This document shows positions 12,398 to 60,949 of a stretch of 64,000 nt of DNA, in pieces. The position numbers and the translations under genes were made by a program. This DNA comes from an uncultured Gammaproteobacteria bacterium. GTDB lineage: Bacteria > Patescibacteriota > Patescibacteriia > Magasanikbacterales > JBBTQS01. How positions within the stretch are numbered: position 1 is the stretch's first letter; every line of letters starts with the position of its first letter. The notes below the pieces were generated by a model, which was not told the origin of the DNA, did not search any database, and saw only the letters and a list, made by a program, of their open reading frames with translations. Location of the stretch: assembly GCA_964627525.1 (NCBI GenBank), contig CAZVIA010000003.1, positions 21,367 through 85,366 of the forward strand, in the 5' to 3' direction.

Positions 12398-14764
12398 ATG
12401 AATAAAGAATTACCCAAAAAATACGATCACAAAACAACTGAAGATAAAATCAAAAAACTTTGGGAAAAGGAAAAAGTTTTTGAATTTAATTTTGATGAGA
12501 GCAAACCAATTTACGCAGTAGATACACCTCCTCCTTATGTTTCTGCAGATCATTTGCATTCAGGTCATATAATGTCCTATGCTCAAGCAGAATTTATTGT
12601 GCGGTACAAACGCATGAAAGGATTTAATGTTTTTTATCCAATGGGTTTTGATGATAATGGTTTGCCTACAGAAAGATTTGTGGAAAAAAAATATAATATA
12701 GATAAGTCAAAAGTTACAAAGCAAGAGTTTATAAAAATTTGTCTGGAAGAAACAAAAAAAGGTGCGCAAACTTATAAAGAATTGTGGACCAATTTAGGGA
12801 TTTCAGTTGATTGGTCAAAAACTTATAGCACAATTAATCCAACAGCGATAAAAGTTTCGCAGTGGTCGCTGATAGATTTGTTTCAAAAAGGTGCTTTGCA
12901 CAGAAGTGAAGCTCCTGTTTTGTGGTGTCCGCATTGTCAGACAGCTTTGGCTCAAGCAGATTTAGAAGACAAAGAAGATGAGTCAAAATTAAATTATATT
13001 ACTTTTAAATCAAGTGAGGGCGATGATCTTACTATTGCAACTTCTAGACCAGAGTTGTTGCCAGCTTGTGTTGCTTTGTATGTAAATCCAGAGGACAAGC
13101 GATTTAAACATTTGATTGGAAAAACTGCGACAGTGCCTTTGTTTGATTATGAGATTCCAATTAAGCCAAGTGAAAAAGTTGATATGGAATTTGGGACTGG
13201 TTTAATGATGGTTTGTACTTGGGGAGATCAGGAGGATTTAGATAAATGGCGCACAGATAAATTAGATACACGACCTTTGATTAAAGAAGATGGAACTTTG
13301 GGTGAAAATGGTGGTAAGTACAAAGGTATGTATTTGTTAAAAGCTAGAAAAGTTATTTTAGAGGATCTTGATGCGGCAAAATTTCTCACAAAACAAGAAG
13401 ACATCACACATTCTTTAAATGTTCATGAAAGATGTTCAACTGCAACAGAATTTGTTCTTAGTAAGCAGTGGTTTATAAAAATTGATGGGATGAAAGATGT
13501 TTGGTTAAAATATGGTGAACAATTAAATTGGTATCCAAAGTTTAAAGCCAAAGATTATGAGATGTGGGTAAATTCAATTAAATGGGATTGGTGTATTTCA
13601 AGACAGCGATATTATGGTGTGCCTTTTCCAATTTGGTATTGTAAAAAATGTGATGAGCCAGTTTTTGCTGAAGAAAAAGATTTGCCAATTCATCCAACTG
13701 AAAAAAATGCACCTGTTGATAAATGTTCAAAATGCGATTCCACAGATTTTGTTCCAGAAAACGATGTAATGGATACTTGGGCAACTTCTTCTTGCACTCC
13801 ATTTTTATTAAAGGAGTTGGTTGAGGAAAAAGCTAAGGATGCTGTTTTTCCAGTGACACTAAGACCAAATGCTTTTGAGATTATTAGGACTTGGGATTTT
13901 TATTCAATGGTAAAAAGTCATTATCATTTTGGAAAATTGCCTTTTAAGGATGTGATGATTTCAGGTCATGGTTTAGATGAAAAGGGTAAAAAAATATCTA
14001 AGCGTTTGGCTAATTATATTCCAGCCGACAAGTTGATTGAGGAGTTTGGTGCAGATGCAATTCGTTATTGGGCAACAGGTGCAACACTTGGTCGGAATTT
14101 GCGTTTTAATAAACAGGAAATTCAAAAAGGGAAAAAAACTGTTACAAAGTTGTGGAATGTTGCGCAGTTTTTGATTGTGAATAATGCTGAATTTAAAGCT
14201 GAAGAACAACCGGTTTTGGAGTATGCGGATTTGTGGATTTTTGAAGAATTAAACAAAACTATAAAAAGAGCCACAGCTTTGTTTGATAAATATGAATACT
14301 CTAAAGCGCGTGATGAAATTGATGTTTTCTTTTGGTCAAAATTTACTGACTATTACATGGAGTTTATTAAACATCGCTTGTCTGGAGATGATGATCAGTC
14401 AAAAGTTGGTGCGCAATATTGTTTTACAAAAGTTTTTGAAAATATTTTGAAAATGTATGCGCCAATTATGCCGTTTGTTACAGAGGAGTTGTTTCAGGTA
14501 TTTTTTAAAGATGTTAAAGGTTCTGAAAAAACTATTCACTTGTGCGCTTGGCCAGAGCAAATTGATGTTGAGGGTGGGGAATTAGACATTTCTGATTTTG
14601 ATAGTGCGATTGAGGCGATTAATGAGGTTAGGGGATTTAAGTCTGTAAATAATATGTCTTTGGGGACTGAATTACCAGAATATAAATTAAAAACCAAAGT
14701 TGATTTAGAAAAATACGGGGATTTTATTAAAAAAGCTATAAAAGTAGGGGGGTTGTTGGCTTAA
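12398..14764 (+). CDS. valS: valyl-tRNA synthetase (short form)
   Basis: Class I HIGH-like motif (HLHSGH) and KMSKS-like motif (KISKR). The editing-domain stretch NPEDKRFKHLIGK...DMEFGTG closely matches the ValS CP1 consensus NPEDPRYKDLIGK...DMEKGTG. Confidence 0.7.
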   Translation: MNKELPKKYDHKTTEDKIKKLWEKEKVFEFNFDESKPIYAVDTPPPYVSADHLHSGHIMSYAQAEFIVRYKRMKGFNVFYPMGFDDNGLPTERFVEKKYNIDKSKVTKQEFIKICLEETKKGAQTYKELWTNLGISVDWSKTYSTINPTAIKVSQWSLIDLFQKGALHRSEAPVLWCPHCQTALAQADLEDKEDESKLNYITFKSSEGDDLTIATSRPELLPACVALYVNPEDKRFKHLIGKTATVPLFDYEIPIKPSEKVDMEFGTGLMMVCTWGDQEDLDKWRTDKLDTRPLIKEDGTLGENGGKYKGMYLLKARKVILEDLDAAKFLTKQEDITHSLNVHERCSTATEFVLSKQWFIKIDGMKDVWLKYGEQLNWYPKFKAKDYEMWVNSIKWDWCISRQRYYGVPFPIWYCKKCDEPVFAEEKDLPIHPTEKNAPVDKCSKCDSTDFVPENDVMDTWATSSCTPFLLKELVEEKAKDAVFPVTLRPNAFEIIRTWDFYSMVKSHYHFGKLPFKDVMISGHGLDEKGKKISKRLANYIPADKLIEEFGADAIRYWATGATLGRNLRFNKQEIQKGKKTVTKLWNVAQFLIVNNAEFKAEEQPVLEYADLWIFEELNKTIKRATALFDKYEYSKARDEIDVFFWSKFTDYYMEFIKHRLSGDDDQSKVGAQYCFTKVFENILKMYAPIMPFVTEELFQVFFKDVKGSEKTIHLCAWPEQIDVEGGELDISDFDSAIEAINEVRGFKSVNNMSLGTELPEYKLKTKVDLEKYGDFIKKAIKVGGLLA

Positions 14765-14802
14765 TTTAGAGATTAATTTAGGGGGAAATTAAAGTGCAAA
14801 GC

Positions 14803-14831
14803 TTGACAAAGTCAGGCTTATGTGCTATATT
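14803..14831 (+). promoter_or_regulatory. near-consensus sigma70 promoter, TTGACA-17-TATATT
   Basis: TTGACA at 14803-14808 and TATATT at 14826-14831, upstream of the GGGGGTAAAG SD and the ATG at 14878. Confidence 0.5.
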
Positions 14832-14877
14832 TTTGTGTCTGGCAATTTTGCCAAGACCAAGGAAACTGGGGGTAAAG

Positions 14878-15381
14878 ATGAGGGAGAGAATGATATTTTT
14901 CTGTGCTATTTTTGTGCTTATGGCCGCTCTAGTCTATGTCTTTGGTTCCAAAAAGGATTCACCAGAAGTTCAAGAAACAACAGGTGAGCCAAGAAGTGAA
15001 TATAGTGTGGTATTTTGCGAAGTGGGTGAGTTTACAAGTGCTAGGCTTGAGATCACTGGGAATTACTTTCATGATTTTGTTGATCTAAAAGAAGGTAAGT
15101 CTTTTCCTTTGGGAATGGTTTGTGGTAAATGGCACCCCATCAAAGAGTGGGAAGGTCATTTCCAGGTCAATCTTATTCCAAGTAGAAAATACAGTCAGGT
15201 TTTGGTGTGCCTAAAGGGTTTCCCAAATAAAAATAACGTAGGAAGTACGTGTTATAAAGTGATTGATCGCGAGGGTGATTTTGGGATTGTCAGGACCATA
15301 GAGCTTAACATTGGGGAAGAAAAAAACCCTGATCTTTGGCCAGTTCAAAGTTTTGATATGGCGCCACCACCGTCTAACTAG
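14878..15381 (+). CDS. hypothetical exported or membrane-anchored protein, first gene of a GC-richer three-gene operon
   Basis: N-terminal signal-anchor MRERMIFFCAIFVLMAALVYVFG and a strong SD. GC is about 43-45% against about 33% in flanking genes. Confidence 0.5.
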   Translation: MRERMIFFCAIFVLMAALVYVFGSKKDSPEVQETTGEPRSEYSVVFCEVGEFTSARLEITGNYFHDFVDLKEGKSFPLGMVCGKWHPIKEWEGHFQVNLIPSRKYSQVLVCLKGFPNKNNVGSTCYKVIDREGDFGIVRTIELNIGEEKNPDLWPVQSFDMAPPPSN

Positions 15382-15410
15382 GCATAAGACACAGAAACAA
15401 GGAGGCCAAA

Positions 15411-15890
15411 ATGACATCCACAGAGAAAAAGCCTCAGGCTAAAGTTCTTGTGGTCAGTGTGTCAGGTTCCGTTCGGCAATTTTTGGGGAGTGTTGTAGAA
15501 CAAAGAGGTCGTGCTGTAACCAAAGTCCGAAATATTGCTTTTGCTGTTGAATTCATGTTGCATCAAGATGTTGATTTGGTGCTAGTTGATTTGCACCTAG
15601 AAGGCTCGCTGGATTTGATGGTTGAAGCCAAACAAAGACAACCAAATGTGTGTTTGTTGGGGATTGCGCGACATGATACTAATCCAGTGATTGTGTTAGG
15701 TGCATTGCAATTAGGTGGTATGCTAAACTGCCTGGTCATACCTGAAGATGGTCTGGGTGTTGTGTCAGAATTTACACGTGGTTTATTTGCAGATATCATA
15801 GATTCTGGTTTGGAATCAATCAAAGTTGCTTGCCCTCAGTGTAAGGGTGAGGGAACTGTACAGCGTTTTCCTGGTAAAGAAACACCCTAA
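15411..15890 (+). CDS. receiver-like (CheY-fold, non-canonical) domain protein with a C-terminal CxxCxGxG zinc-finger motif
   Basis: VLVVS...DLVLVDL receiver-like pattern lacking the acidic pair. The C-terminal CPQCKGEG is a DnaJ-type CxxCxGxG motif. AAGGAGG SD is present. Confidence 0.45.
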   Translation: MTSTEKKPQAKVLVVSVSGSVRQFLGSVVEQRGRAVTKVRNIAFAVEFMLHQDVDLVLVDLHLEGSLDLMVEAKQRQPNVCLLGIARHDTNPVIVLGALQLGGMLNCLVIPEDGLGVVSEFTRGLFADIIDSGLESIKVACPQCKGEGTVQRFPGKETP

Positions 15891-16041
15891 AGTTGAGAGT
15901 TGCCAACAACTACTTGAGAGCCACTAAGCTTAACGCGCTGGTGGTTTTTAAGTTGTCTAAAAAACTTGACACATCAACCCAACAGTGCTATTGTTTTTTG
16001 TTAAACAAATTTGTTTAACACATGCACGGGAGGGGGAGAAA

Positions 16042-17067
16042 ATGAGGATACTTGAGGTTTTTGCTGTCTATGTTATGGATGTAGTGTTAGCTGGAGTTGG
16101 TTGGGTAAAATGGTTTTACTCTAGGTGTAGGTTTTACATTAAAACCAATATTCTGAATCAAGTGATGTACAAGATTAATCCTAAGCAAAGTGTGCGAATG
16201 TACATGCAAGCAAGTCTGTTGTCTTTACAAAAAGAAAAAGATGAGTTTGCTACATTGGATTTGTTGTTTAGTTTGCCACCACATCTGTCTGATGTTTTGA
16301 CGAATTTTATGATGTACATTCAAGGTGCAAAGGAAATCATGCAATCTTGTGGCACATGGCCATTTGAAAATGAGGATGAGGAATTTAGTAGTACCAAGCT
16401 CAAGCTTATTTATTCCAAACTTGCAAAGTTTTTTCTTGAAAACAAGTGTAGGGGTTTTTTGGAATATGATGAAGCTTTGGATTACCAAGATGCTTTATTG
16501 TGCGAACAACTAAGGCAGTTGATCGGTGCAATGTCTGCAATAGGTAATCCTAGTGCTAGATTTGATCCTTGGTTTTATTTTGCAATGTGGTCTGAGGAAT
16601 TGGATCTTGTTGAGATTGCTTTTTGCAGGTCTTTAGGTAATTACTTGATTGCGCGTGCTAATAAGCAAAGAGCTAACATAAAAGATTATGTACCACCTGG
16701 TTTACCACCAGAATTTGTGGTCAAGTTGATTGAAATGGTTGCAGAGATTAATTTGATTGAGTTGAGTTTGTCAGAAGCAGATAGATTTTATGATGACATT
16801 GGAGTGGATCATAAGACAAGTGATTTCAATACAGTGTGTTTGTTCTTGGGTGGTTATCTGTGTCATCTTTGTGTGGGGGAGTCATTTCCAATACTAGATT
16901 GTGAAATTGGTTTGTTATACCGTGGTCAGATTACAAAGTACTTGGCACATGTCATGTATTCTCTTGTAACTACTGTGCCTGGTGATGAACCAGATCTTTT
17001 ATTTTTCTCTCCTATGGATTGGAAGGATCAAACTTTTGAATTTGAAAGTGAATGGGATGGTGAATAA
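16042..17067 (+). CDS. hypothetical acidic cytoplasmic protein of 341 aa, no recognisable domain
   Basis: GGGAGGGGGAG SD followed by an ATG at 16042. The ORF-track start at 15985 is likely an upstream extension. Confidence 0.5.
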   Translation: MRILEVFAVYVMDVVLAGVGWVKWFYSRCRFYIKTNILNQVMYKINPKQSVRMYMQASLLSLQKEKDEFATLDLLFSLPPHLSDVLTNFMMYIQGAKEIMQSCGTWPFENEDEEFSSTKLKLIYSKLAKFFLENKCRGFLEYDEALDYQDALLCEQLRQLIGAMSAIGNPSARFDPWFYFAMWSEELDLVEIAFCRSLGNYLIARANKQRANIKDYVPPGLPPEFVVKLIEMVAEINLIELSLSEADRFYDDIGVDHKTSDFNTVCLFLGGYLCHLCVGESFPILDCEIGLLYRGQITKYLAHVMYSLVTTVPGDEPDLLFFSPMDWKDQTFEFESEWDGE

Positions 17068-17107
17068 GTTGGGGATTTTGAAAAAAACTTTAAAAAACAA
17101 CAAAGAG

Positions 17108-17140
17108 CCGTGCGTTTAACAGTGTACGGTTTTTTGATTG
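17108..17140 (+). terminator. probable rho-independent terminator of the three-gene operon
   Basis: An imperfect hairpin CCGTGCG...TGTACGG followed by TTTTTTG. Confidence 0.35.
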
Positions 17141-17151
17141 TTAGTTTTCTC

Positions 17152-17189
17152 TGTTCACTATTGTGAAGAATGTTAGAGTTGAGTTTTGT
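17152..17189 (+). repeat. 38-bp junction repeat, copy 1 (TGTTCACTATTGTGAAGAATGTTAGAGTTGAGTTTTGT)
   Basis: One of six copies of a conserved repeat containing the palindrome TTCAC-TATT-GTGAA and a GATGTTAG(A/G)A core. Confidence 0.8.
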
Positions 17190-17383
17190 TTAGAATTGCA
17201 CTAATCTTTCTTAAATAATAAGATTTTGGTACAGTATATTTGTACTGAATATTTTATGTCTAAAAAATATCAAAAACAATCTGTTATTTATCAAGGTAAA
17301 ACTGGAGCTATTAAAGGAAAAACCCGAAAGATAAAGATAAGATGATTGGGTTGGTTTTGTTGTTGTTGAAGAAATAGTTTTAG

Positions 17384-17421
17384 TGTTCACTGTTGTGAAG
17401 GATGTTAGAACTGGGTTTTGT
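17384..17421 (+). repeat. 38-bp junction repeat, copy 2
   Basis: TGTTCACTGTTGTGAAGGATGTTAGAACTGGGTTTTGT. Confidence 0.8.
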
Positions 17422-17492
17422 GTCATATAATAAGTTTTAATATCTTTATAAAAACACACTGCCCACGTTAATGAGCAGTGTGTGGTAAGAAT

Positions 17493-18014
17493 TCAATAAC
17501 GTTGTCTTTTTGGTTTAATACCTTTGAGATAATAATCAATCCTTTCTTTTTTCCACATTTTTTCAATATTAGCATCATCAGTTCTTGTGCCTGGATAAAC
17601 TCTATTTTTGCCTTTTTCTAAGGTTCTCTTTAATCCAAAACTTTTTGAATCAATATGTGCAATAGTAAGTTCATCAATCAGTTGATCTACTTTTTGTCTT
17701 GTGCTTTGATCTACCCCTTCTCTTTTGCGATCTATGCTATTAGATGTGTTTGGGTCATTACCATGTCCTTCACCTAATAATACTTTTAATTCATCTATGC
17801 TAATTGTTAAACCATGCTTGCTTTGTATTGTTTTACCAATTGCATACAAACAATCATATTTATTTAAACGCATGAAATAACCTTCTTTGTCCTTGAATAC
17901 GAATTTTACAAGGGTGTGATTTTCATCAACCTCTTGTTCAATATTATATTCTCTTTCTTCTCTGTATCGGGATCCTTGGTCATAATTATATCCATATTTT
18001 TTTGGTTCTGTCAC
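17493..18014 (-). CDS. hypothetical protein of 173 aa
   Basis: Clean ORF lying between repeat copies 2 and 3; no recognisable motif. Confidence 0.45.
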   Translation of the reverse strand: MTEPKKYGYNYDQGSRYREEREYNIEQEVDENHTLVKFVFKDKEGYFMRLNKYDCLYAIGKTIQSKHGLTISIDELKVLLGEGHGNDPNTSNSIDRKREGVDQSTRQKVDQLIDELTIAHIDSKSFGLKRTLEKGKNRVYPGTRTDDANIEKMWKKERIDYYLKGIKPKRQRY

Positions 18015-18204
18015 TACTTGCCACCCCTTTTTGTTGGTTAATGTTTGTTGAAATTTACCACCTAGTCTTTTCTGTGTTATTTTGATATTCGTAATTATAG
18101 TTTTTTTAATTTAAAATTAGCTATTTTTTTTGTATAAAAATATTTTGTTCGTGGTTATTGACAAAAAACTTGTTAAATGTTAAGTTGTTGTTCTATTAAA
18201 AACT

Positions 18205-19038
18205 ATGAAAATATTTGATGAAAACCAAAAATTAATTTTTAAATTACAGAAGTGTGGTTTAACAAAAAAACAGACCACTGTTTATCTTGGTCTTTTAGAA
18301 TTAGGAGGTGCTTTTCCTTCAAAAGTTTCTGATTATGTAAACATGAATAGATCAACTGTTTATAAAATTCTTAGTGATTTATCTATTAAAAATTTAATTG
18401 TTGAAACAAAAAAAAGAGGTAAGTGGTTTTATTGTGTTGAAAAACCAGAAAAACTATTGTCTCACAACAAACGCAGGATTAATATATTAAATAAAGAAAT
18501 TAAAAGTACTGAAAATGTTTTAAAGGATTTAAATAGTTTATTTTCTTTAAATTTACAAAAACCAAAAATTAAATTTTATGAGGGTGTTGAAGGGGTCTTA
18601 GAAGTGTTTCGTAGTCATCTGAATATTGAAAAGCCGTATGAAATGTTGGCTGTTTGTAATGCATCTAAGTTTTTAAAATTTATTCCTAATAAGGAATTAA
18701 AAAAATATTTGAAAGCAAAAGAAAAGTTGGAGATTACAACCAGGGGATTAGTGCCAGATACAAATACAGACATCAAATATAATAATAGTGCTTGTAAAAA
18801 TGCTGGGGTTAGCAAAAAAACATGGCCAAAGTTGAGGTTTGTTTCTTCAGAGGTTTTTAATATGGGAAGTGATATAACTGTTTATGGTGAGGATAAAATA
18901 TCAATTATAAATTTTACTAATGATAAATTGATAGGGATTATCATCGAAGATAAAACTATACACGATATGTTTAAAATGGTCTTTAATCTTGCGTGGAAAG
19001 GTGCTGAGAGGGGTTGTTTAAGATGTTCACTATTGTGA
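18205..19038 (+). CDS. TrmB-family-like HTH transcriptional regulator; paralogue of the gene at 24712
   Basis: The N-terminal LTKKQTTVYLGLLELG...STVYKILSDLSIKNLI winged-HTH pattern resembles TrmB. The last six codons and the stop lie inside repeat copy 3. Confidence 0.5.
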   Translation: MKIFDENQKLIFKLQKCGLTKKQTTVYLGLLELGGAFPSKVSDYVNMNRSTVYKILSDLSIKNLIVETKKRGKWFYCVEKPEKLLSHNKRRINILNKEIKSTENVLKDLNSLFSLNLQKPKIKFYEGVEGVLEVFRSHLNIEKPYEMLAVCNASKFLKFIPNKELKKYLKAKEKLEITTRGLVPDTNTDIKYNNSACKNAGVSKKTWPKLRFVSSEVFNMGSDITVYGEDKISIINFTNDKLIGIIIEDKTIHDMFKMVFNLAWKGAERGCLRCSLL

Positions 19039-19061
19039 AGGATGTTAGGATTGGGTTTTTT
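19024..19061 (+). repeat. 38-bp junction repeat, copy 3
   Basis: TGTTCACTATTGTGAAGGATGTTAGGATTGGGTTTTTT. Confidence 0.8.
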
Positions 19062-19125
19062 TAGATATTTTATAATTTCAGTCGGTATGGTAGTATAGAT
19101 TATATAAGTTTAATCAAATAAATAT

Positions 19126-19557
19126 ATGAATTTTCAAATAGAAAATTGTGGTTTTTGCCAATATAATAAAACCAAAAATACATTCAAAAAAATGAATTTT
19201 CAGCCAAGTGGAATTGAAGGTGGAGGTCAAAATAGCGCAGAAAGAGCTGGTTTTTGTAAAGATGGGAATAATCCAGAGACGTGCGAGACATGTAAAACAG
19301 AAAATGAAATTAAATTAATGGAAGCTCAAGCTGAAATTGATAATAGAGCAAAAATAGTGGACGCAGAAGCAGGTGAGTTAAGAGCACAAAGTATTAGGGC
19401 TACTGGTGAGCAAATGCATAGACAGATGGCAGATGATGCAGAAATGACTGCAAGGCAAATGGAGAGGTTTGGTTATGGAAAAGGTAAAGAAAGGTTAAAT
19501 ACATTTCATGACAAAAACGAAGAATTTTACGATCAAAGAGGTAGAAAAAAAGAATAA
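19126..19557 (+). CDS. hypothetical zinc-ribbon protein (CGFC...CETC) with a coiled-coil C-terminus, copy 1
   Basis: 143 aa with two CxxC pairs and an A/E/R-rich helical tail. Confidence 0.5.
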   Translation: MNFQIENCGFCQYNKTKNTFKKMNFQPSGIEGGGQNSAERAGFCKDGNNPETCETCKTENEIKLMEAQAEIDNRAKIVDAEAGELRAQSIRATGEQMHRQMADDAEMTARQMERFGYGKGKERLNTFHDKNEEFYDQRGRKKE

Positions 19558-19627
19558 TAGTTATATAAGGTTATTAAACAGAAGTTTTTTTGTTTGTGTT
19601 AATATAGTAAATATTTAATCAAAAACC

Positions 19628-20200
19628 ATGAGAGGAGAAAGAAGACCTGGAGAAGGTTCTAATGCGCGTGAGTTTAAAGCGCCCTCATCACTTTCTGAAG
19701 AAGATCATTATTCTACTTTGGGAGTTTCTAGAAATTCTAGCCCTGCTGAACTTAAAGCAGCTTATCGTGCGTTGGCACAAATCCATCATCCAGATAAAGG
19801 TGGTAATGAGGAAGATTTTAAACTTGTTGGTCAAGCTTTTGAAGTTCTTAGTGATCCAGGTCAGCGTGAGACATATGATCTTACTAAGTTTGCGCCTAGC
19901 AGTCCTGAACAACAAACATACGAAACAGGTGTTAGGCAGCCTACTGAAGAAGAAAAGAGAAGAATGGATGAGGAACTTGCCAAAGATAGAGCCAGAAGAG
20001 AAAAAGAGAGAAAAGAGAGAAAAGAAAAATGGAGAAAAGAACATCCAGAACTTGCAAGACAGCAAGATGAAATTGGGGCAGCTAAAAAAGAAGCAGTAAG
20101 CCAAGTAAAGGAAGATTTAGCCAAAGCAAAGGAAGATTTAGCAAAAATGAAAACTGATTTAAGAGCTAGGGCAGCTGAAATGAAAAGTAAACGGTTCTAA
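19628..20200 (+). CDS. J-domain (DnaJ-like) protein with a K/E-rich coiled-coil tail, copy 1
   Basis: DHYSTLGVSRNSSPAELKAAYRALAQIHHPDKGG...FKLVGQAFEVLSDPGQRETYD is a canonical J-domain with the HPD motif. Confidence 0.75.
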   Translation: MRGERRPGEGSNAREFKAPSSLSEEDHYSTLGVSRNSSPAELKAAYRALAQIHHPDKGGNEEDFKLVGQAFEVLSDPGQRETYDLTKFAPSSPEQQTYETGVRQPTEEEKRRMDEELAKDRARREKERKERKEKWRKEHPELARQQDEIGAAKKEAVSQVKEDLAKAKEDLAKMKTDLRARAAEMKSKRF

Positions 20201-20241
20201 TATTAACATTACCTATCTCAATTTTTACTTGAACTTAGTAG

Positions 20242-20279
20242 TGTTCACTATTGTGAAGGATGTTAGGATTGGGTTTTTT
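20242..20279 (+). repeat. 38-bp junction repeat, copy 4
   Basis: Identical to copy 3. Confidence 0.8.
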
Positions 20280-20343
20280 TAGATATTTTATAATTTCAGT
20301 CGGTATGGTAGTATAGATTATATAAGTTTAATCAAATAAATAT

Positions 20344-20775
20344 ATGAATTTTCAAATAGAAAATTGTGGTTTTTGCCAATATAATAAAACCAAAAATACA
20401 TTCAAAAAAATGAATTTTCAGCCAAGTGGAATTGAAGGTGGAGGTCAAAATAGCGCAGAAAGAGCTGGTTTTTGTAAAGATGGGAATAATCCAGAGACGT
20501 GCGAGACATGTAAAACAGAAAATGAAATTAAATTAATGGAAGCTCAAGCTGAAATTGATAATAGAGCAAAAATAGTGGACGCAGAAGCAGGTGAGTTAAG
20601 AGCACAAAGTATTAGGGCTACTGGTGAGCAAATGCATAGACAGATGGCAGATGATGCAGAAATGACTGCAAGGCAAATGGAGAGGTTTGGTTATGGAAAA
20701 GGTAAAGAAAGGTTAAATACATTTCATGACAAAAACGAAGAATTTTACGATCAAAGAGGTAGAAAAAAAGAATAA
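20344..20775 (+). CDS. hypothetical zinc-ribbon protein, copy 2 (identical)
   Basis: 100% identical duplicate. Confidence 0.5.
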   Translation: MNFQIENCGFCQYNKTKNTFKKMNFQPSGIEGGGQNSAERAGFCKDGNNPETCETCKTENEIKLMEAQAEIDNRAKIVDAEAGELRAQSIRATGEQMHRQMADDAEMTARQMERFGYGKGKERLNTFHDKNEEFYDQRGRKKE

Positions 20776-20845
20776 TAGTTATATAAGGTTATTAAACAGA
20801 AGTTTTTTTGTTTGTGTTAATATAGTAAATATTTAATCAAAAACC

Positions 20846-21418
20846 ATGAGAGGAGAAAGAAGACCTGGAGAAGGTTCTAATGCGCGTGAGTTTAAAGCGC
20901 CCTCATCACTTTCTGAAGAAGATCATTATTCTACTTTGGGAGTTTCTAGAAATTCTAGCCCTGCTGAACTTAAAGCAGCTTATCGTGCGTTGGCACAAAT
21001 CCATCATCCAGATAAAGGTGGTAATGAGGAAGATTTTAAACTTGTTGGTCAAGCTTTTGAAGTTCTTAGTGATCCAGGTCAGCGTGAGACATATGATCTT
21101 ACTAAGTTTGCGCCTAGCAGTCCTGAACAACAAACATACGAAACAGGTGTTAGGCAGCCTACTGAAGAAGAAAAGAGAAGAATGGATGAGGAACTTGCCA
21201 AAGATAGAGCCAGAAGAGAAAAAGAGAGAAAAGAGAGAAAAGAAAAATGGAGAAAAGAACATCCAGAACTTGCAAGACAGCAAGATGAAATTGGGGCAGC
21301 TAAAAAAGAAGCAGTAAGCCAAGTAAAGGAAGATTTAGCCAAAGCAAAGGAAGATTTAGCAAAAATGAAAACTGATTTAAGAGCTAGGGCAGCTGAAATG
21401 AAAAGTAAACGGTTCTAA
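20846..21418 (+). CDS. J-domain protein, copy 2 (identical)
   Basis: 100% identical duplicate. Confidence 0.75.
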   Translation: MRGERRPGEGSNAREFKAPSSLSEEDHYSTLGVSRNSSPAELKAAYRALAQIHHPDKGGNEEDFKLVGQAFEVLSDPGQRETYDLTKFAPSSPEQQTYETGVRQPTEEEKRRMDEELAKDRARREKERKERKEKWRKEHPELARQQDEIGAAKKEAVSQVKEDLAKAKEDLAKMKTDLRARAAEMKSKRF

Positions 21419-21459
21419 TATTAACATTACCTATCTCAATTTTTACTTGAACTTAGTAG

Positions 21460-21497
21460 TGTTCACTATTGTAGAGGATGTTAGAACTGGGTTTTAT
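21460..21497 (+). repeat. 38-bp junction repeat, copy 5 (variant TGTTCACTATTGTAGAGGATGTTAGAACTGGGTTTTAT)
   Basis: The palindrome is disrupted (GTAGA instead of GTGAA); this copy ends the duplicated block. Confidence 0.75.
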
Positions 21498-21539: not shown

Positions 21540-21700
21540 AATTTAATATAAACGTATCCAGAGAGTAGAGATGTTAAGGGAATTGACCCAAAGCTCTACC
21601 CGCAACCTATTTGTTTAGGTGCGAAATTCAACCCTATTGGGATAGATACTAGGAATCACTGGATGACGTCGCCCTTAAGGTGACTTTTTATTTTAGTTAT
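21540..21700 (+). promoter_or_regulatory. structured GC-richer leader ending in an intrinsic terminator (riboswitch- or attenuator-like)
   Basis: Several local hairpins (GTAGAG...CTCTAC; CGCAACCT...AGGTGCG). A terminator GUCGCC-cuuaa-GGUGAC followed by TTTTTATTTT lies at about 21665-21700, immediately upstream of the ORF at 21711. Confidence 0.35.
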
Positions 21701-21710
21701 CAAGGTCATC

Positions 21711-21962
21711 TTGTGGGCGACATCATCAAAAAACAGCCTTGCATCAATTCCGATGCAAGGTGTTGTTTTTTGTAAAAAGCCCAAAAAGAGAGTGACTATG
21801 GCCTGGGAAGGAATGAGAAAGTGTGTTTTCTGTCGCAGTGCTTGGTGTAAGTGTGGAAATCTGAGAAGAGAAAGAGAAAGGGTAAAGGCTGGTGGGAAGA
21901 GAAATAAATCAAGAACCTACACCAACAAGACTCCTCGGCTAGGGATTGTGAGGGTAAACTAA
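21711..21962 (+). CDS. small Cys- and K/R-rich hypothetical protein of 83 aa
   Basis: ORF with FCKKPKK...CVFCRSAWCKCGN. Weak evidence; could be non-coding. Confidence 0.25.
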   Translation: MWATSSKNSLASIPMQGVVFCKKPKKRVTMAWEGMRKCVFCRSAWCKCGNLRRERERVKAGGKRNKSRTYTNKTPRLGIVRVN

Positions 21963-22022: not shown

Positions 22023-22060
22023 ATGTTCACTATTGTGAAGGATGTTAGAACTGGGTTTTG
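22023..22060 (+). repeat. 38-bp junction repeat, copy 6
   Basis: TGTTCACTATTGTGAAGGATGTTAGAACTGGGTTTTGT; the last copy, abutting the ABC-transporter operon. Confidence 0.8.
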
Positions 22061-22118
22061 TGTACCCCATGGTGTGTAACACTATATTATTTAGATTGGG
22101 TATGTCATTTCTATTTTC

Positions 22119-25830: not shown

Positions 25831-26901
25831 TTAACTATTACCTTTTTTAATATTACAAGGTCTACACAAGAGTTGTGCATTTGAAAGCACTGTTCTACCC
25901 CCTTTACTCCACGGATCTACGTGATCCATAGAAAGCTCTTCAGTGTAAAAGTATTTATTACAAATTTTGCATTTATATTTGCCTTCATTGTTAGGCTTTT
26001 GTTTTTTTAAGAATTCTTTTTTATCATCAATAGAAAATAGTCGTTTATCATCAACACTAATATTTTTCACTATAGCTTGGATAATGTCTTCGATCTCCTG
26101 TGCCTTATTAGTCAACTTTGCATCATCGCTTTTTAAATATTTTTTGACTCTTAAATTAATTTCATCTTTATTCTTTTTCCATATTACTGAATCTTTGATA
26201 TATTTTCTGGCCAAGTTGAAATAAATATCCAACTGGCCATAACTGTTAAATATATTACTTATAAATTTAATGTATTTAGTAATATCTTTTTGATCAGTAA
26301 CAAACGATTCATTTTGGTTTTGACTTACATAATCATTTATATTAGCTGTGTCTTTTGGTAAATTTCTTAAGATCATTAGTAGTTTTAATATTTTATATTG
26401 ATTTTTTCCACGACTATTAGAGCCCAACACTTTTATGGCATCTCTGTCTTGTTTTGCGTATGTAGATAACCCTCTTAAATATTCACCATAAAAAAGACCA
26501 TTTAACACTTCGTAGTTAGATAAAGGTACGCCTAAGGTGTTTATTCTTCTAAAGATTTCTCTTTTCAACTCCTCCTTTCCTTCACAAATTATTATTGAGA
26601 GTTCGGTTTTATTTATTATTTCTTGAGTTTTTTTGTCTGTCTGTTTCCAAAGTTTTTCCTCGAATAGTATGTCATTTTCAATGAATTTTTTTATTGCTTC
26701 AATTCTTTGTTTTCCATCTAAAACTTCTAGTATGCCCTTTTTATTTTTCCAAAAGTAAAAAGCTGGCAATGGAATTCCTTTAACAATACTGTCTACAACC
26801 AATATTTGCTTATTAGTGTCGTAGACAATTTCCCTTTGAAGTTCAATATCACTAATAATTTTGCCATCCCTTACTTCCTCGTATAAGTGTTTTATGTTCA
26901 T
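25831..26901 (-). CDS. DUF262 (ParB/GmrS-like) N-terminal domain fused to a C-terminal HNH nuclease; GmrSD-like putative restriction endonuclease
   Basis: LEVLDGKQRIEAI, the DGQQR motif of DUF262, at the N-terminus. The C-terminal CKICNKY...DHVDPWSKGG...CRPCNIKKG is an HNH motif. Confidence 0.65.
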   Translation of the reverse strand: MNIKHLYEEVRDGKIISDIELQREIVYDTNKQILVVDSIVKGIPLPAFYFWKNKKGILEVLDGKQRIEAIKKFIENDILFEEKLWKQTDKKTQEIINKTELSIIICEGKEELKREIFRRINTLGVPLSNYEVLNGLFYGEYLRGLSTYAKQDRDAIKVLGSNSRGKNQYKILKLLMILRNLPKDTANINDYVSQNQNESFVTDQKDITKYIKFISNIFNSYGQLDIYFNLARKYIKDSVIWKKNKDEINLRVKKYLKSDDAKLTNKAQEIEDIIQAIVKNISVDDKRLFSIDDKKEFLKKQKPNNEGKYKCKICNKYFYTEELSMDHVDPWSKGGRTVLSNAQLLCRPCNIKKGNS

Positions 26902-27905
26902 ATTTTTGGATTTTTAAACAAGTCCTTGTTTTTTATTATTATTCTTTCAAAAGGTGCTTTAAATGGCTTTCCGTCTTTTTCAATCCATAGTGTCGCTTTG
27001 TCTCCTTTAAATCTAATGGTTTTTTCAACCTGCACACCTTTACCTATAATTTCAAATTGGTCAGGGTTATATTTTGTTAAAAATGTTATTGGAACTCCCA
27101 TCTCGCCTTTATAATCATATGGTATGTTTTTTGTTTTGTTGACATCAATTCCATTGTAATTATAGTAATTTGGATATTTCTCGGAGTCGTAAGATTCGGT
27201 CAATATCATTCTGTCGTGACGATACGATACATCTAGGTTTGTATACCATTTACATGCTCTAGGCACAGAACCTTCTGGGTTTTTTGAAAGTAGTAGAGTA
27301 TTATCAATTAAACGAAAGCCAGTTAACTGCTTGGCGTAACCAAGCCACATTTTGTCGTCTTTTATGTGACTAAAGATTTCTTTATATGTTATGGCTGTTA
27401 AGGGGCCAATGACTAAAAAATTCATTTTATTTTTAAACATTGTGTCAATGAATTCTCTAAATTGACTAAATGGCGGGTTTGTTATTACTAAGTCATATTT
27501 TGAATAATCAACATCCTGAAATTTAACACCTTTACCTGTTGCAGGATTATATCCGCTGGCAGAAATAGATGATATGTCATAAGTGTCAGCGTGAGCCACT
27601 AGAAATTTAACAAAATTACATTTAATCAAAGACAACTCTTTTTCTATTTTCTTTTTTGATGCTTTAATATTTATTTTTTTTATTGTTCCTCCGCTGTCTA
27701 GTAGATTTGATGGGGTGATGTAACCTTCTTCTTTGAAAACAATTTCTTCTTCATAACTTTCATCCCAATCACAAGGGCATAATATTCTTTTACTTTTTAG
27801 TTGCTCCTTATATAAAGAAACTTCTTTTGATATGTCTTCGTATAAAGTGTAGAATTCATCGTCCTTGGCCTTATTTGCTTTGTATAGTGATTTTTTAGTG
27901 CCCAT
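26898..27905 (-). CDS. EcoRI-methylase-family N6-adenine DNA methyltransferase
   Basis: Collinear with M.EcoRI as recalled: DEFYT, CPCDWDE, DLVITNPPFSQFREF, KMWLG, CKWYTNLDV, GVPITFLTKYNPDQFEII. Overlaps the downstream nuclease gene by 4 bp. Confidence 0.8.
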   Translation of the reverse strand: MGTKKSLYKANKAKDDEFYTLYEDISKEVSLYKEQLKSKRILCPCDWDESYEEEIVFKEEGYITPSNLLDSGGTIKKINIKASKKKIEKELSLIKCNFVKFLVAHADTYDISSISASGYNPATGKGVKFQDVDYSKYDLVITNPPFSQFREFIDTMFKNKMNFLVIGPLTAITYKEIFSHIKDDKMWLGYAKQLTGFRLIDNTLLLSKNPEGSVPRACKWYTNLDVSYRHDRMILTESYDSEKYPNYYNYNGIDVNKTKNIPYDYKGEMGVPITFLTKYNPDQFEIIGKGVQVEKTIRFKGDKATLWIEKDGKPFKAPFERIIIKNKDLFKNPKI

Positions 27906-32224: not shown

Positions 32225-33832
32225 ATGAAAAAAGATAATAGTAAAACTTATTTCCTTTATGCACGAAAAAGCTCAGAGTCAGAAGATAGACAAATGCAAA
32301 GTATTGAAGATCAAACAGAGAAATTGGAAGAGCTAGCCAAGTTAAAAGGATTAAAAATCAAAGACATATTTACAGAAGCAAGATCAGCCAAAAAACCAGA
32401 CAATAGACCTGCTTTTACTGAAATGCTTGATAGGTTGAGTAAAGGCGAAGCTGATGGTATTTTGTGTTGGAAAATAAATCGTCTTACAAGGAATCCTATT
32501 GATAGCGGTAAGTTAAGTTGGATGCTGCAACAAGGAATTATTAAATCAATTCAAACTTATGATAGGGAATATTTACCAACTGATAATGTGATTCTTTTTA
32601 ATGTTGAGAGTGGAATGGCTAATCAATATATTTTAGATTTGAGCAAAGATGTAAAAAGAGGAATGGAAAAAAGAATAAGAAGTGGTTGGAAAAATGGACA
32701 AGCTAATATTGGTTATTTGAACCATAGAGATCCAATAGAAGGTTTAAAAACAATTATTAAAGACCCCGATCGTTTTGGTTTGGTGAGAAAAATGTGGGAC
32801 ATGATGCTAACAGGAAATCATTCTGTTTCAGATATTTTAGATATAGCAAACAATAAGTGGGGTTTTCGCACGAAAAGAACAAGAAAAAAAGGTGGGACAC
32901 CATTATCAAAAAGTACTCTTTATAAAATATTCAATAGTCAGTTTTATGCTGGGATTATTGAGCATAAAGAAGAAGTGATCATTGGTAAACATGATTCAAT
33001 GGTTACATTGGATGAATTTGACCGTGTTCAAGAATTACTAGGCAAAAAAGGGAAGCCAAGACCTAAAACACATAAGTTTCCATATACAGGCACAATAAGA
33101 TGTGGTGGTTGTGGTGCAATGATTACAGCAACAAAGAAAAGGAAGTATATAAAAGTTGATAATTGTTATAGGGAATATGTTTATTATCACTGCACAAAAC
33201 AAAGAAAGTATGTTAAATGCAATCAACCAAGTTTGAAAGTTGAAGAGTTGGAAGAACAAATAGATAAACAACTACAAAGTATTACTATTTTGCCAGAATT
33301 TAGAGATTGGGCTTTAGAAGCTCTTAATGAAATGAATGATCAAGAGATTCTTGATAGAGGTAAGATATATGAATCACAACATAAAACATTAGTACAAACA
33401 CAAAGAGAATTGGATAATCTAACTAAGATGAGATATAGAGATCTTATAGATGATGAAATGTATGTAAAAGAAAAAATAGATTTACAAAATAAAATTACAA
33501 AACTAGAAGTTTCGTTAAGAGATACAGAATCAAGAGCGAAAGAGTGGTTAGAATTAACTGAGAAGACTTTTGATTTTGCAACTTATGCAAGAGTTCATTT
33601 TAAAAACGGAGATTTAGAGACAAAAAAACAAATCCTTAGAACTATTGGAACTGAATACACACTAAGGGACAAAGTATTGGAAATTAAGCCAAAAGAATGG
33701 TTAGTGCCTATTAAAGAGGGTTATCCAGCACTTGAAGAAAAATATTACGCATTAGAACTGGATAAAACCCCTATAAATAAAGAACAAAACAAGGCTTTTG
33801 CCTTGCTTCGTTCACAATGGTTCGGGGACTAG
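32225..33832 (+). CDS. large serine recombinase (phage-integrase type)
   Basis: N-terminal resolvase catalytic domain YARKSSESEDRQMQSIEDQ...RLTRN, a recombinase domain, a Cys4 zinc ribbon (CGGCGAM...HCTKQ) and a coiled-coil tail. Confidence 0.85.
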   Translation: MKKDNSKTYFLYARKSSESEDRQMQSIEDQTEKLEELAKLKGLKIKDIFTEARSAKKPDNRPAFTEMLDRLSKGEADGILCWKINRLTRNPIDSGKLSWMLQQGIIKSIQTYDREYLPTDNVILFNVESGMANQYILDLSKDVKRGMEKRIRSGWKNGQANIGYLNHRDPIEGLKTIIKDPDRFGLVRKMWDMMLTGNHSVSDILDIANNKWGFRTKRTRKKGGTPLSKSTLYKIFNSQFYAGIIEHKEEVIIGKHDSMVTLDEFDRVQELLGKKGKPRPKTHKFPYTGTIRCGGCGAMITATKKRKYIKVDNCYREYVYYHCTKQRKYVKCNQPSLKVEELEEQIDKQLQSITILPEFRDWALEALNEMNDQEILDRGKIYESQHKTLVQTQRELDNLTKMRYRDLIDDEMYVKEKIDLQNKITKLEVSLRDTESRAKEWLELTEKTFDFATYARVHFKNGDLETKKQILRTIGTEYTLRDKVLEIKPKEWLVPIKEGYPALEEKYYALELDKTPINKEQNKAFALLRSQWFGD

Positions 33833-33891
33833 GATTTGAACCTAGATTGGCGGTACCAGAAACCGCAGTCCTACCATTAGACGATCCCCGA
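33818..33891 (-). tRNA. tRNA-Gln (anticodon CUG)
   Basis: Cloverleaf with acceptor TCGGGGA/TCCCCGA, a 3-bp D stem, anticodon loop TTCTGGT, T-arm CTAGG-TTCAAAT-CCTAG, and an encoded CCA. Overlaps the recombinase 3' end by 15 nt. Confidence 0.85.
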
Positions 33892-36480: not shown

Positions 36481-39057
36481 TTAAGTAGTAGGTTCAGTAG
36501 GTTGAGCCTCACCCAATGTATCTGAAACACCAAGAGCAGAACGATCCATTACTTCTTCTGCAACAATTTTTCTGTCACGACCATATTTTATTCGTGACAA
36601 TTTAATTATACTTTTTGCATACTCTTCATTTTCTGGAAGAGGTGGTTCTGTTGCCATATTAAATGGTTTGGCAGCAGTGTTATCTATCAACAATTTAACG
36701 TATGCAGTAAATTTTTCTACATTAATTAAATCATAAGCATTAAACACAGGTGCAAATTCTTTTGCTAAAATTTCTGAATCATCAGGTCCAATTCTAAATG
36801 CACACATAGTACCAGCATTACCTAGCACAGCGTCACGAACAGAAGAATCTCCTTTGGTAGAATCTGAAAGCTGTCCCATATATTGGTGAGCCATTATTAA
36901 ATTCAAACGATATTTACGAGCTTCAGACAAAATTGTTGAAATTGAATCTGTAATAAAGTTTTGAAATTCATCAATATATAAATAAAAATCATGGCGTTTG
37001 TCTTCAGAAATATCAGCACGACCAAGCGCAGCCATTTGTAATTTGGCAACAATAATCAAACCTAACAGCTTTGCATTAACTTCACCAGTTGTACCTTTGG
37101 CCAAATTAATTAACAAAATCTTTTTCTTATCCATTATTTCGCGAAAATCAAAACCAGATTTATTTTGTCCAATAATATTTCTCATCATTTCATTTCCAAC
37201 AAAACGCCCAACTTTTGAAATCAAATAACCAAGTGTTTCTGATTTGTGGAAGTCAGAAGTTTTTGCCATTTCTTTTTCCCAAAAAGCACGCACAACAGGA
37301 TCTTTAACTTTTTTAACCCAACCTTGTGCAAAAGCATCATCTGAAAACATTCTTGGAATTTCAGCAATTGTTCCAGGTTCTTTGATATCCGCCATTAATG
37401 TAAGCATCACATTTCTCATTTGATGTTCAAAAATAGGGCCAATCATTTCAGCTCCAAAAAGTTTGTAAAAAATTGAAATCATTTCCTGCACAACAAAATC
37501 TTTTTGGTCTTCTGTTTTTGCTTCAAGCATATTCAAACCAACAGGACGATCCATGTCTGAAGGATTGAAAATAATTACATCATCTTTTCTTTCTTCTGGA
37601 ATATTAGCTAAAACATGCATTACCAAATCTCCATGAGGATCTAACACACAAACACCTTCGCCATTTTTAACATCTTGAATTATCATGTTTTCCATGTACA
37701 CAGATTTTCCAGAACCAGACTTACCAATAATGTACATGTGACGACGACGATCTCCACGTTTAATTCGTACAGGAGTTTTTTCATTTCTATATAAAGCTTT
37801 ACCCAAAAGCAAGCCTTCTTCTGGCATGTTTGAAGGTGGGGGAGCTTTACGCGCAGACAACCAATTAATATTTGGAGTTTCAGTTGAAGGCAAAGGCAAA
37901 TGCCACATGCTTGTAATTTCTTCTGTATTTAAAATTATGGTTTTATTATCATGAAAAGCTCGATAAATAAAATCTTCTATTAAATGTCCTTGACCTCGCG
38001 GAGCTAAAGCTGAAAAAGAATTTCCGTATTGATAATTATTAAATTGTGAAAATGCATTTAATAAAGAATCTAAGTGTTGGCGCGCAGTTGTGTCATTATC
38101 TGTAGCAACAACAATTCTAATGTTTACATCTAAGCCAGCTTTTGAAGACTTAGCTTCAATTCTTTTTACAATCTCTTCTTCAGTTGCATTCATTCTAAAT
38201 GAATCTGGTGTTGATTGCATTTGCTGCTGCTGATCTTTTTGCCCAGTACCCAAAGCTTGTCCAAGAGCATTTCCAGCACTACTGCTTCCAGCTCCACCTC
38301 CCATTAATCCCGCATGCTTTTGTCCTTTGTATCTTCCTTTTTGCATTTTCTTTGAAATCATGGAAGTTTGTGACCGCCATTTTTTCTTAGAACTTCTTAT
38401 CACAAACTGAATTGCTGCACCTTCTTCTTTTGCTAATTTGCTCAAGGGATTTGTTAGGCCAGACAAAGGATCGCTTTCAAGTTCTTTGTATGTTTTTAAT
38501 GTGTGTGAAAAATGTTTTTTAAAAACCAAATACGCACCAATAATTGAACTGTCTTTTTTGAAAAAATTATAATCCTCGGTTTCATCAATTTGTGCATTAG
38601 GATATTGTGCAAGAATTTGTTGTGTTAAAAATTGTTGCAGTTTATTTGGCACAACAATATAAAAAGAAATCAAACCTTTGTTCATCACCATTTCAAAACT
38701 AATGTGATCTGTTCTTCCACGCAACCATGTCATAAACCCTCTTTGTGCGCGCAAACCACCAATTGTTGCAAACAAAGTTTCAGCAACAGCAATATCTTGA
38801 CGTATTCCATCAATTGAAACCTCTTCTTGTTTGTCTTTTTCAGCTTTTTCTTTTGGAATGCGAACAAGCAAAGTTTTCATGTTCAAACTTACGTGTTTGC
38901 GAAATTTTTGTTTAAGAACAGAACGTAAAATAAACAAAGATCCAACACCTGCCAAAATGCTAGCAATTCCAATAATTAATGAGAATATTAAAACTTCAGT
39001 ACTTGTTCCACTGCTCGCATAATTAGCTTGAGTGGTTAGTGTTAATTGTAAAAACAT
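36481..39057 (-). CDS. VirB4/TrbE-like (DUF87 P-loop) type IV secretion / DNA-translocation ATPase
   Basis: Two N-terminal TM helices; Walker A IIGKSGSGKS at about aa 440; Walker B LYIDEFQNF; RKYRLNLIMAHQ resembles the RKxN...ATQ motif. Confidence 0.5.
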   Translation of the reverse strand: MFLQLTLTTQANYASSGTSTEVLIFSLIIGIASILAGVGSLFILRSVLKQKFRKHVSLNMKTLLVRIPKEKAEKDKQEEVSIDGIRQDIAVAETLFATIGGLRAQRGFMTWLRGRTDHISFEMVMNKGLISFYIVVPNKLQQFLTQQILAQYPNAQIDETEDYNFFKKDSSIIGAYLVFKKHFSHTLKTYKELESDPLSGLTNPLSKLAKEEGAAIQFVIRSSKKKWRSQTSMISKKMQKGRYKGQKHAGLMGGGAGSSSAGNALGQALGTGQKDQQQQMQSTPDSFRMNATEEEIVKRIEAKSSKAGLDVNIRIVVATDNDTTARQHLDSLLNAFSQFNNYQYGNSFSALAPRGQGHLIEDFIYRAFHDNKTIILNTEEITSMWHLPLPSTETPNINWLSARKAPPPSNMPEEGLLLGKALYRNEKTPVRIKRGDRRRHMYIIGKSGSGKSVYMENMIIQDVKNGEGVCVLDPHGDLVMHVLANIPEERKDDVIIFNPSDMDRPVGLNMLEAKTEDQKDFVVQEMISIFYKLFGAEMIGPIFEHQMRNVMLTLMADIKEPGTIAEIPRMFSDDAFAQGWVKKVKDPVVRAFWEKEMAKTSDFHKSETLGYLISKVGRFVGNEMMRNIIGQNKSGFDFREIMDKKKILLINLAKGTTGEVNAKLLGLIIVAKLQMAALGRADISEDKRHDFYLYIDEFQNFITDSISTILSEARKYRLNLIMAHQYMGQLSDSTKGDSSVRDAVLGNAGTMCAFRIGPDDSEILAKEFAPVFNAYDLINVEKFTAYVKLLIDNTAAKPFNMATEPPLPENEEYAKSIIKLSRIKYGRDRKIVAEEVMDRSALGVSDTLGEAQPTEPTT

Positions 39058-59571: not shown

Positions 59572-60949
59572 GAAAAAACCTACTACAAAAGTGCGCAAAA
59601 AAGTTGCGCCAAAAAAATCTGTTGCACAAGTTAAAGTTAAGTCAAAACCTAAAACTAAATTAAAGTCCGCAAAATCTGTTTCTAAAAAAACTACTTCTAA
59701 AAAAGTAGTTGTTAAGCGCGGAAAGGTTTTGAAAAAAAGTGCAAAAGTTGATAAAAAAGTTTTGAAAAAGTCCGGGAAAAAATCTGGGAAAAAAGTTTTG
59801 AAAAAATCCACAAAACATGCGCCAAAAAAACGTGGGCGTAGACCTTTTATTCCACCTCCAATAGTTTATGAAGTGGAAATGATTTTGCGTAAAGCTAAGA
59901 CGCGTGGATTTTTAACTGAAACAGAAGTTTTGCATATTTTTCCTGAAGTGGAAGAGCATGTACATTATTATGAAGGGTTTTTAAATGAATTGGAAAAGCG
60001 TGGTTTGTCTATTGTTGAAATGAAAGAGGGGTTGTTGGGTCAGATAGATCATAAACAAGATGTGCGTGATGAGTTTCATATTGAGAAAATTACAGACATG
60101 GCGAAGGCATTTAATTTTACGGATATTTCTGCGGATTCAATTCAAATGTATTTGCGTGAGATTGGAAAGATTCCTTTGTTAAATGCTGAACAAGAAGTTG
60201 CTTTGGCAAAGCGTAAAGAGAAAATGGATCGTTTGGCAGAAATGGCTTTGATTGTGGCAAACTTGCGTTTGGTTGTTTCAATTGCCAAAAAATTTGTGGG
60301 AAAAAATTTGACTTTACTTGATTTAATTCAAGAAGGAAATATTGGTTTGTTCCGTGCAGTGAAAAAATTTGAATATCGTAAAGGGTATAAGTTTTCAACA
60401 TATGCAACTTGGTGGATTCGGCAGGCGATTACACGTGCTTTGGCAGATCAGTCGCGAACAATTAGAATTCCAGTGCATATGGTTGAGACTATTAATAAGT
60501 TTATGCAGATTCAGCGAAGGTTGTTGCAGGATTTGGGACGTGATCCAACTCCAGAGGAAATTGCGGCTGAAATGGGACAGGATGTGAAAAAAGTTCGGCA
60601 CATTATTAAGATTTCGCAGGATACTGTTTCGCTTGAGGTTTCTGTTGGGGAAGATGACGATGATTCAAGTTTACAAGACTTTATTGAGGATGTAAAAAAT
60701 GTTACGCCAGATCGTGCGGCAGCGTTGGAGTTGTTGGGAGATTATGTGCGTGATGCAATTGTGGATTTGGCTCCGCGTGAGCAAAAGATTTTGGAGATGC
60801 GTTTTGGTTTGAAAGATGGAATTGCGCATACTTTGGAAGAAGTTGGTCGTGAGTTTGATGTGACTCGTGAACGTATTAGGCAGATTGAGGCAAAAGCTTT
60901 GGAGAAAATTCAAGCAATGCCGATTATTGAGAAGTTGCGGGATTACTAA
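59564..60949 (+). CDS. rpoD: RNA polymerase primary sigma factor with a lysine-rich N-terminal extension
   Basis: Region 2 ([39 protein letters not shown]), region 3 and region 4. Overlaps dnaG by 8 bp. Confidence 0.9.

Follow-up and report, generated by a model that had tools for sequence, protein, structure and literature searches.

An exact tandem duplication of 1218 bp

The window analyzed here is a 64-kb stretch of contig CAZVIA010000003.1 (GenBank assembly GCA_964627525.1) from an uncultured Patescibacteria bacterium, and it contains two identical head-to-tail copies of a 1218-bp segment carrying two genes, one for a 143-aa orphan protein and one for a 190-aa J-domain protein. The two copies probably represent a real and very recent tandem duplication, with at least two copies of the segment present in part of a natural clonal population of this bacterium. 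If this is true, a natural duplication has been caught at zero divergence in an uncultured bacterium with a reduced genome, and a comparison of the parental with the duplicated allele is possible between samples. It would also mean that short local repeats can drive gene-dose changes in reduced genomes.

Comparison of positions 19024-20241 with 20242-21459 revealed 0 mismatches over 1218 bp, as reported in an initial annotation of this DNA, and an identity of this length is beyond chance. The identity at a period of 1218 begins abruptly at 19024 (base 19023 is A, base 20241 is G) and extends 13 bp beyond copy 2, up to 21472, where the 13-nt extension reads TGTTCACTATTGT. It is lost after this position, with GA at 20255-6 versus AG at 21473-4. 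Both open reading frames (ORFs) that the initial annotation had listed as duplicated were found in each copy (Table 1). Each copy retains its repeat and approximately 65 nt upstream of the first start codon in addition to both genes. No ORF crosses the joint between the copies, and no fusion gene is formed.

Each unit begins with a member of a short direct repeat family, of which six copies, named R0 to R5, were found in the window, all on the + strand (Table 1). The position of the repeat at the head of each unit agreed with the initial annotation, which gave a length of 38 bp; the conserved core has 37 nt, TGTTCACTATTGTGAAGGATGTTAGAACTGGGTTTT. The two parental repeats R2 and R4 agree at 32 of 37 positions; the longest stretch without a mismatch between them measures 13 nt and starts at offset 0, the start of the core. 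To the left of the junction copy R3 lies the unit-end context, and from core position 14 on R3 matches R2; at core positions 14-15, R3 equals R2, whereas R4 differs. As R3 combines these two properties, the exchange is placed inside the 13-nt exact block, and the repeat at 21460 marks the joint as originally proposed. The joint sits where a homology-guided event is most likely, and therefore no special enzyme is required to explain its position. There is one novel joint (unit end to unit start), and it lies within sequence common to both parental endpoints, as expected for a tandem duplication.

Table 1. Coordinates of the repeats, the duplicated units, their joint, and the associated genes in the window
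Feature	Position	Strand	Properties
R0	17152..17188	+	Most diverged copy, 30-33/37 versus the others; just past a terminator-like hairpin at 17101-17136
R1	17384..17420	+	36/37 identical to R5; 31-nt exact block reaching 4 nt (GTGT) past the core
R2	19024..19060	+	Left parental repeat; overlaps the end of the TrmB-like gene (final five codons plus stop codon)
R3	20242..20278	+	Junction copy, identical to R2
R4	21460..21496	+	Right parental repeat, 32/37 versus R2; palindrome broken (GTAGA for GTGAA)
R5	22024..22060	+	Last copy; adjoins the 3' end of the minus-strand ABC-transporter operon
Duplication unit, copy 1	19024..20241	+	1218 bp with R2, upstream region, 143-aa ORF, and 190-aa J-domain ORF; identical to copy 2
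Duplication unit, copy 2	20242..21459	+	1218 bp; begins with the junction repeat R3
Novel joint	20242..20254	+	13-nt TGTTCACTATTGT, common to R2 (19024-19036), R3, and R4 (21460-21472)
143-aa orphan protein	19126..19557; copy 2 20344-20775	+	Two CxxC pairs, then long helices
190-aa J-domain protein	19628..20200; copy 2 20846-21418	+	PF00226; lysine/glutamate-rich C-terminal half
TrmB-family regulator gene	18205..19038	+	Ends inside R2; single copy, not duplicated

One-copy and probable duplicated alleles in other assemblies

Exact-protein look-ups in assemblies from JGI, ENA, and Logan detected the locus in several samples. Seven public contigs of up to 16 kb (L001, L003, L005, L006, L007, L011, and L015) showed 0 mismatches to the window from which one copy had been removed, and one-copy contigs run unbroken from the left flank through the unit to the right flank. 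Thus, the same clone exists with the parental one-copy allele, and the very recent origin that had been suggested for the duplication is supported by the complete identity of these seven contigs. The direct copies, the one joint in common sequence, and a one-copy parent that is otherwise identical are together the hallmarks of a tandem duplication.

In the JGI assembly 3300009374 the locus is split into three contigs. The first (L015) corresponds to window positions 13281-19142 and stops 119 nt into the unit; the second (L010) has a length of 1231 bp and corresponds exactly to 19024-20254, which is the unit plus the 13 common bases; the third (L020) begins at 21354, 119 nt before the end of the unit plus 13. 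The contig ends thus form symmetric 119-nt overlaps, as in a de Bruijn graph with k near 119. This is exactly the pattern of a unit node with two entries and two exits, in which some reads join the unit end to the unit start, whereas for a simple path from left flank to unit to right flank a single contig would be expected, as obtained from the other samples. The 1231-bp contig was recorded for three samples. No deletion allele joining the left to the right flank was found in the graph of JGI 3300009374, L015 having no break at 19036. It is concluded that reads across the junction are very likely to exist and that probably only some of the samples contain the duplication.

The repeat family

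The six repeats are confined to 17.15-22.06 kb of the window, with spacings from R0 to R5 of 232, 1640, 1218, 1218, and 564 bp. No further copy was detected in the 64 kb by a profile built from the six copies, and a fuzzy-match search gave the same six. A profile search of 28 related loci revealed no copy outside the six in the window, repeat pattern scans of GTDB genomes and IMG/VR gave 0 matches, searches of phages and plasmids gave no similarity to the repeat, and no similar repeat was found in the nearest GTDB genomes, which are metagenome-assembled genomes (MAGs) of Patescibacteria. The pattern scan of the JGI contig collection also gave 0 matches, in a collection that evidently lacks samples holding this organism.

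The sequences flanking the six repeats are mutually unrelated. Each repeat is located 0-85 nt past a + strand stop codon, with R2 overlapping one, and for two of the six a + strand gene downstream is absent. With their common orientation, the repeats delimit five segments of unrelated, mostly orphan genes. They contain a palindrome with a 5+4+5 layout (TTCAC-TATT-GTGAA), and the joint of the duplication lies within the best-conserved part of the repeat, adjoining the 5-bp palindrome. Our best guess is that the repeat marks a boundary between small gene modules or binds a protein there.

Over 40 nt (17384-17423 versus 22024-22063), 39 positions agree between R1 and R5. The match includes 4 nt (GTGT) beyond the core, and the two repeats bracket a 4.6-kb segment with no integrase inside. 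Such near-identity would be compatible with R1 and R5 being the termini of a 4.6-kb insertion and may be taken as a hint of such an event.

Proposed origin of the duplication

In the parental order, the left flank would have been followed by R2, the unit, R4, and the right flank, with R2 and R4 as diverged local repeats at a distance of 1218 bp. Sister chromosomes would have undergone an unequal exchange, or replication would have slipped or switched its template, within TGTTCACTATTGT, the only long exact match between R2 and R4, and this would have joined the unit end to the unit start. As a consequence, the dose of the two genes would be doubled; no neighbouring gene is damaged. Once formed, the 1218-bp identity would permit RecA-type expansion and loss, and the occurrence of samples with and without the duplication would be explained in this way.

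According to a review (PMC11721125), tandem amplifications are unstable, their copy number varies within populations, and amplification junctions can have microhomology or no homology. Nothing at the locus departs from this picture, and it can be regarded as a fresh example of a known process. The features shared with spontaneous tandem duplication and amplification in bacteria are the exact head-to-tail copies, the single joint in a short common sequence, the coexisting one-copy allele, and the variation between populations. The locus differs in its setting, an uncultured Patescibacteria population rather than a laboratory selection, in its small unit of 1.2 kb, and in its endpoints, which are members of a dedicated local repeat family and not insertion sequence (IS) elements, rrn operons, or repetitive extragenic palindromic (REP) sequences.

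Several points weigh against a recent tandem duplication. The junction is deduced from the places where contigs end and from the sequence of the window itself, and eight other assemblies pass through the locus with one copy. Faced with a loop, an assembler writes it out twice irrespective of how many copies exist. JGI 3300009374 may be the sample of the window's source contig, in which case the two lines of evidence would not represent independent samples. Finally, 13 nt is below the usual length for efficient RecA exchange, and the event would therefore have to rely on a site-specific enzyme or on a route independent of RecA.

Alternative explanations

It is unlikely that the second copy reflects one chromosomal copy accompanied by a circular excised or episomal unit, or an array of more than two copies, with an assembler that walked the loop in the graph once. 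A tandem array and a circle plus one integrated copy leave the same signature in the graph, a loop walked in the minimal way would be expected to give exactly two copies, and the eight one-copy assemblies are compatible with such a constellation. For the circle, these points are countered by three others. The unit contains no replication or recombinase gene; a non-replicating circle arising from a 13-nt exchange should be so rare that graph cleaning would remove it; and the reciprocal deletion joint was not found in JGI 3300009374, where L015 passes 19036 and L020 starts at 21354. A circular form is accordingly considered unlikely. As the loop in the graph is alike for two copies, many copies, and one copy plus a circle, the two-copy count may be the assembler's writing of one loop pass, and the copy number of the segment in the deposited genome is not to be trusted without reads.

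A distinctly unlikely explanation is that the 37-nt repeats are the sites of a site-specific recombinase and that the array at 17.15-22.06 kb has grown by stepwise insertion of small circular cassettes. Copy 2 would then derive from the re-insertion of an excised unit or from an exchange that an enzyme made between R2 on one sister chromosome and R4 on the other. The arrangement of the array is in line with this proposal: same-orientation repeats bound segments of unrelated, mostly orphan genes and follow closely on + strand stop codons, R1 and R5 resemble the ends of an inserted element over 40 nt, including the 4 nt past the core, and the joint falls next to the palindrome, where conservation of the repeat is highest. 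Neither an integron integrase nor another tyrosine recombinase was identified, however, among the approximately 50 window ORFs scanned, the sole recombinase being a large serine recombinase 10 kb away. Further, no cassette was found in another context, the public contigs differing only in how many copies of the unit they have and in a breakpoint at ~18128, and the repeat was not found in GTDB representative genomes, the JGI contig collection, IMG/VR, phages, or plasmids. The joint is also located in the longest exact block, so that plain homology explains its position without an enzyme. There is a slim chance that the array is a cassette-accretion platform of a type undescribed in Patescibacteria, integron-like with a short double-stranded site and a recombinase encoded elsewhere, and that the duplication is a cassette caught re-inserting.

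A pure assembly or curation artefact with a unit-to-unit junction in no read, a possibility raised in the initial annotation, is very unlikely: most public assemblies of the clone have one copy, and the source contig, which may have been scaffolded or edited, continues across 13274/13281, where other assemblies break off, but no graph assembler could invent the k-mers of the joint, which are new sequence, and both the separate JGI assembly and the 1231-bp contig of three samples break at exactly the predicted unit boundaries with symmetric 119-nt overlaps.

Comparison of the repeats with known elements

The repeats were compared with integron attC sites. DNA folding of the six repeats on both strands gave only the 5-bp stem (-2.2 to -5.5 kcal/mol, most z-scores not significant) and thus no attC-like hairpin, and no significant RNA structure was obtained for the repeats (z-scores -1.4 to +1.0). 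An identity as attC was rejected because the repeats have no imperfect palindrome of 55-140 nt with a long hairpin. An integron-type exchange (G|TT of GTTRRRY) was likewise rejected, as the sole GTTRRR is located at core positions 21-26 and the exchange took place to the left of it. Complete integrons have an adjacent integrase, whereas clusters of attC sites lacking integron-integrases (CALINs) are without it. The locus resembles integron arrays and CALINs in that same-orientation repeats part small gene modules and stand right after stop codons; it differs from them by the missing long imperfect hairpin, by the absence of an integrase in the 64 kb, by an exchange off GTTRRR, and by one module that contains two divergent genes and their own intergenic region.

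Assignment to a Xer/dif site was rejected since the 11-6-11 layout (28-bp site with two 11-bp arms and a 6-bp spacer, expected at the replication terminus) is missing; by inspection, the palindrome has a 5+4+5 layout. The GC skew is positive on both sides of 17-22 kb, with no switch at the locus. Arrays of integrative mobile elements exploiting Xer (IMEX) and of dif modules are similar to the locus in that direct repeats flank successive modules, and tandem copies of an element are common there. The locus differs from these arrays by the lack of the 11-6-11 layout, by the 4-nt spacer of the palindrome, and by its position, which is not at a GC-skew switch.

In T4-type phages, promoter-stem-loop repeats bracket small gene modules. 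By analogy, short intergenic repeats upstream of accessory modules could serve as portable homology for shuffling, loss, or duplication. The locus differs from the phage elements in being located on a bacterial chromosome, in having no promoter detected within the repeat, and in the two of six repeats that lack a + strand downstream gene. A scan with the sigma-70 promoter consensus gave no site in or directly after the repeats, and the site count of the region was not above that of shuffles.

An array of clustered regularly interspaced short palindromic repeats (CRISPR) was rejected because the spacings are 232-1640 bp and the intervals hold genes, versus the non-coding spacers of 26-72 nt and repeats of 23-47 nt expected for such arrays. 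A resemblance to the parS half-sites TGTTNCAC and GTGNAACA was dropped, as the halves are 4 nt too far apart.

Genes of the duplicated unit and adjoining segments

The repeat array and its orphan cargo, the J-domain protein and the cysteine-containing helical protein, are the only parts of the locus that could lead to something new. In the 190-aa protein, PF00226 was assigned to residues 26-84 (2.7e-19), and the HPD motif is present as HHPDKGG, which substantiates the J domain named in the initial annotation. Database matches are restricted to this domain (~31% coverage), and the charged, low-complexity C-terminal half has no relatives. A full-length DnaJ or CbpA was rejected since the PF01556 C-terminal substrate-binding domain is missing and the J domain alone matches.

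The 143-aa protein had been described as a zinc-ribbon protein. The two CxxC pairs were confirmed (residues 8-11 and 53-56); the label itself is a guess, with no family match in domain, phage, defence, and NCBI family libraries and a poor AlphaFold single-sequence model, whose predicted local distance difference test (pLDDT) score of 62 is too low for a fold search. Among 5.8 billion clustered proteins and 1.84 billion representatives, the protein matches only itself.

The GC content at third codon positions (GC3) of both cargo genes (0.20-0.21) is the same as that of the housekeeping genes of the window, and the duplicated unit is therefore considered resident DNA. Family library scans gave no replication or recombinase gene in the unit. 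Searches of the proteins encoded in the orphan-gene island against phage, defence, and NCBI family libraries yielded no match other than the J domain and a weak receiver domain. A further island protein, of 173 aa, matches only itself.

In the repeat-bounded segment that follows the duplication, an S-adenosylmethionine (SAM)-I riboswitch-like element was found at 21551-21652 (+). The full RF00162 model (Rfam) gave 32.2 bits, below the gathering score of 44.4, with E = 2e-4 in a 5.4-kb search. The element is followed by terminator-like hairpins at 21668-21684 and 21736-21761 and is upstream of a tiny cysteine-rich basic ORF (~21753-21962) only; no methionine or SAM gene is located downstream.

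Genomic context and further variation

The window is assigned to a bacterial chromosome because it contains valS, bipA, greA, dnaX, ligA, gatA, dnaG, rpoD, type IV pilus genes, and three tRNA genes. The nearest GTDB genomes, the Patescibacteria MAGs mentioned above, have a BipA identity of 64-84% (Magasanikbacteria ~73%). The repeat array is located within a 7-kb stretch of orphan genes between valS and the ABC-transporter operon. In the closest GTDB relative (L048, BipA 84% identical), dnaX lies ~0.5 kb from greA and a DEAD-box helicase gene. In the window these genes are separated by ~22 kb (12016-33939) with valS, the repeat array, the ABC transporter, restriction-modification genes, and the serine recombinase.

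This recombinase, the only one in the window, is encoded at 32225-33832 adjoining tRNA-Gln. It has 535 aa with Resolvase, Recombinase, and zinc-ribbon domains, and the end of its gene overlaps the opposite-strand tRNA-Gln (32225-33891). A VirD4-like coupling protein is encoded at 36481-39057, and the region with the recombinase and this protein is probably an integrated mobile element.

The assemblies of the clone revealed further breaks and differences. Contigs of several independent assemblies end at 13274 (L049, L050) or start at 13281 (L011, L015), leaving a 6-nt gap inside valS (12398-14764) across which the window's source contig is continuous; this break may represent strain variation or scaffolding. 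In two ENA scaffolds (L002, L004; bases 1-33), the first 33 nt, lying just upstream of the TrmB-like gene, do not match the window. The starts of several further contigs fall at 18107-18133. The region ~18095-18128 is a strain-level breakpoint between the genes for the 173-aa and the TrmB-like proteins and is not at a repeat. A GmrSD/HNH nuclease gene adjoins an EcoRI-type adenine methylase gene at 25831-27905. In L002 (6519-7589) the nuclease gene is called as two genes (94 and 261 aa), with T-to-A changes at ~26101 and 26118; this appears to be a likely inactivating variant in one sample.

Two repeats of other kinds were observed elsewhere in the window. A 58-nt direct repeat (51244-51301 versus 51901-51958, 84% identical) is located inside one 458-aa gene with two Lysine_decarbox (LOG-like) domains and is an old internal domain duplication. 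A 36-nt tandem repeat of 2.2 copies (59753-59830, 76% matches) is present in the 5' part of a sigma-70 gene (59564-60949).

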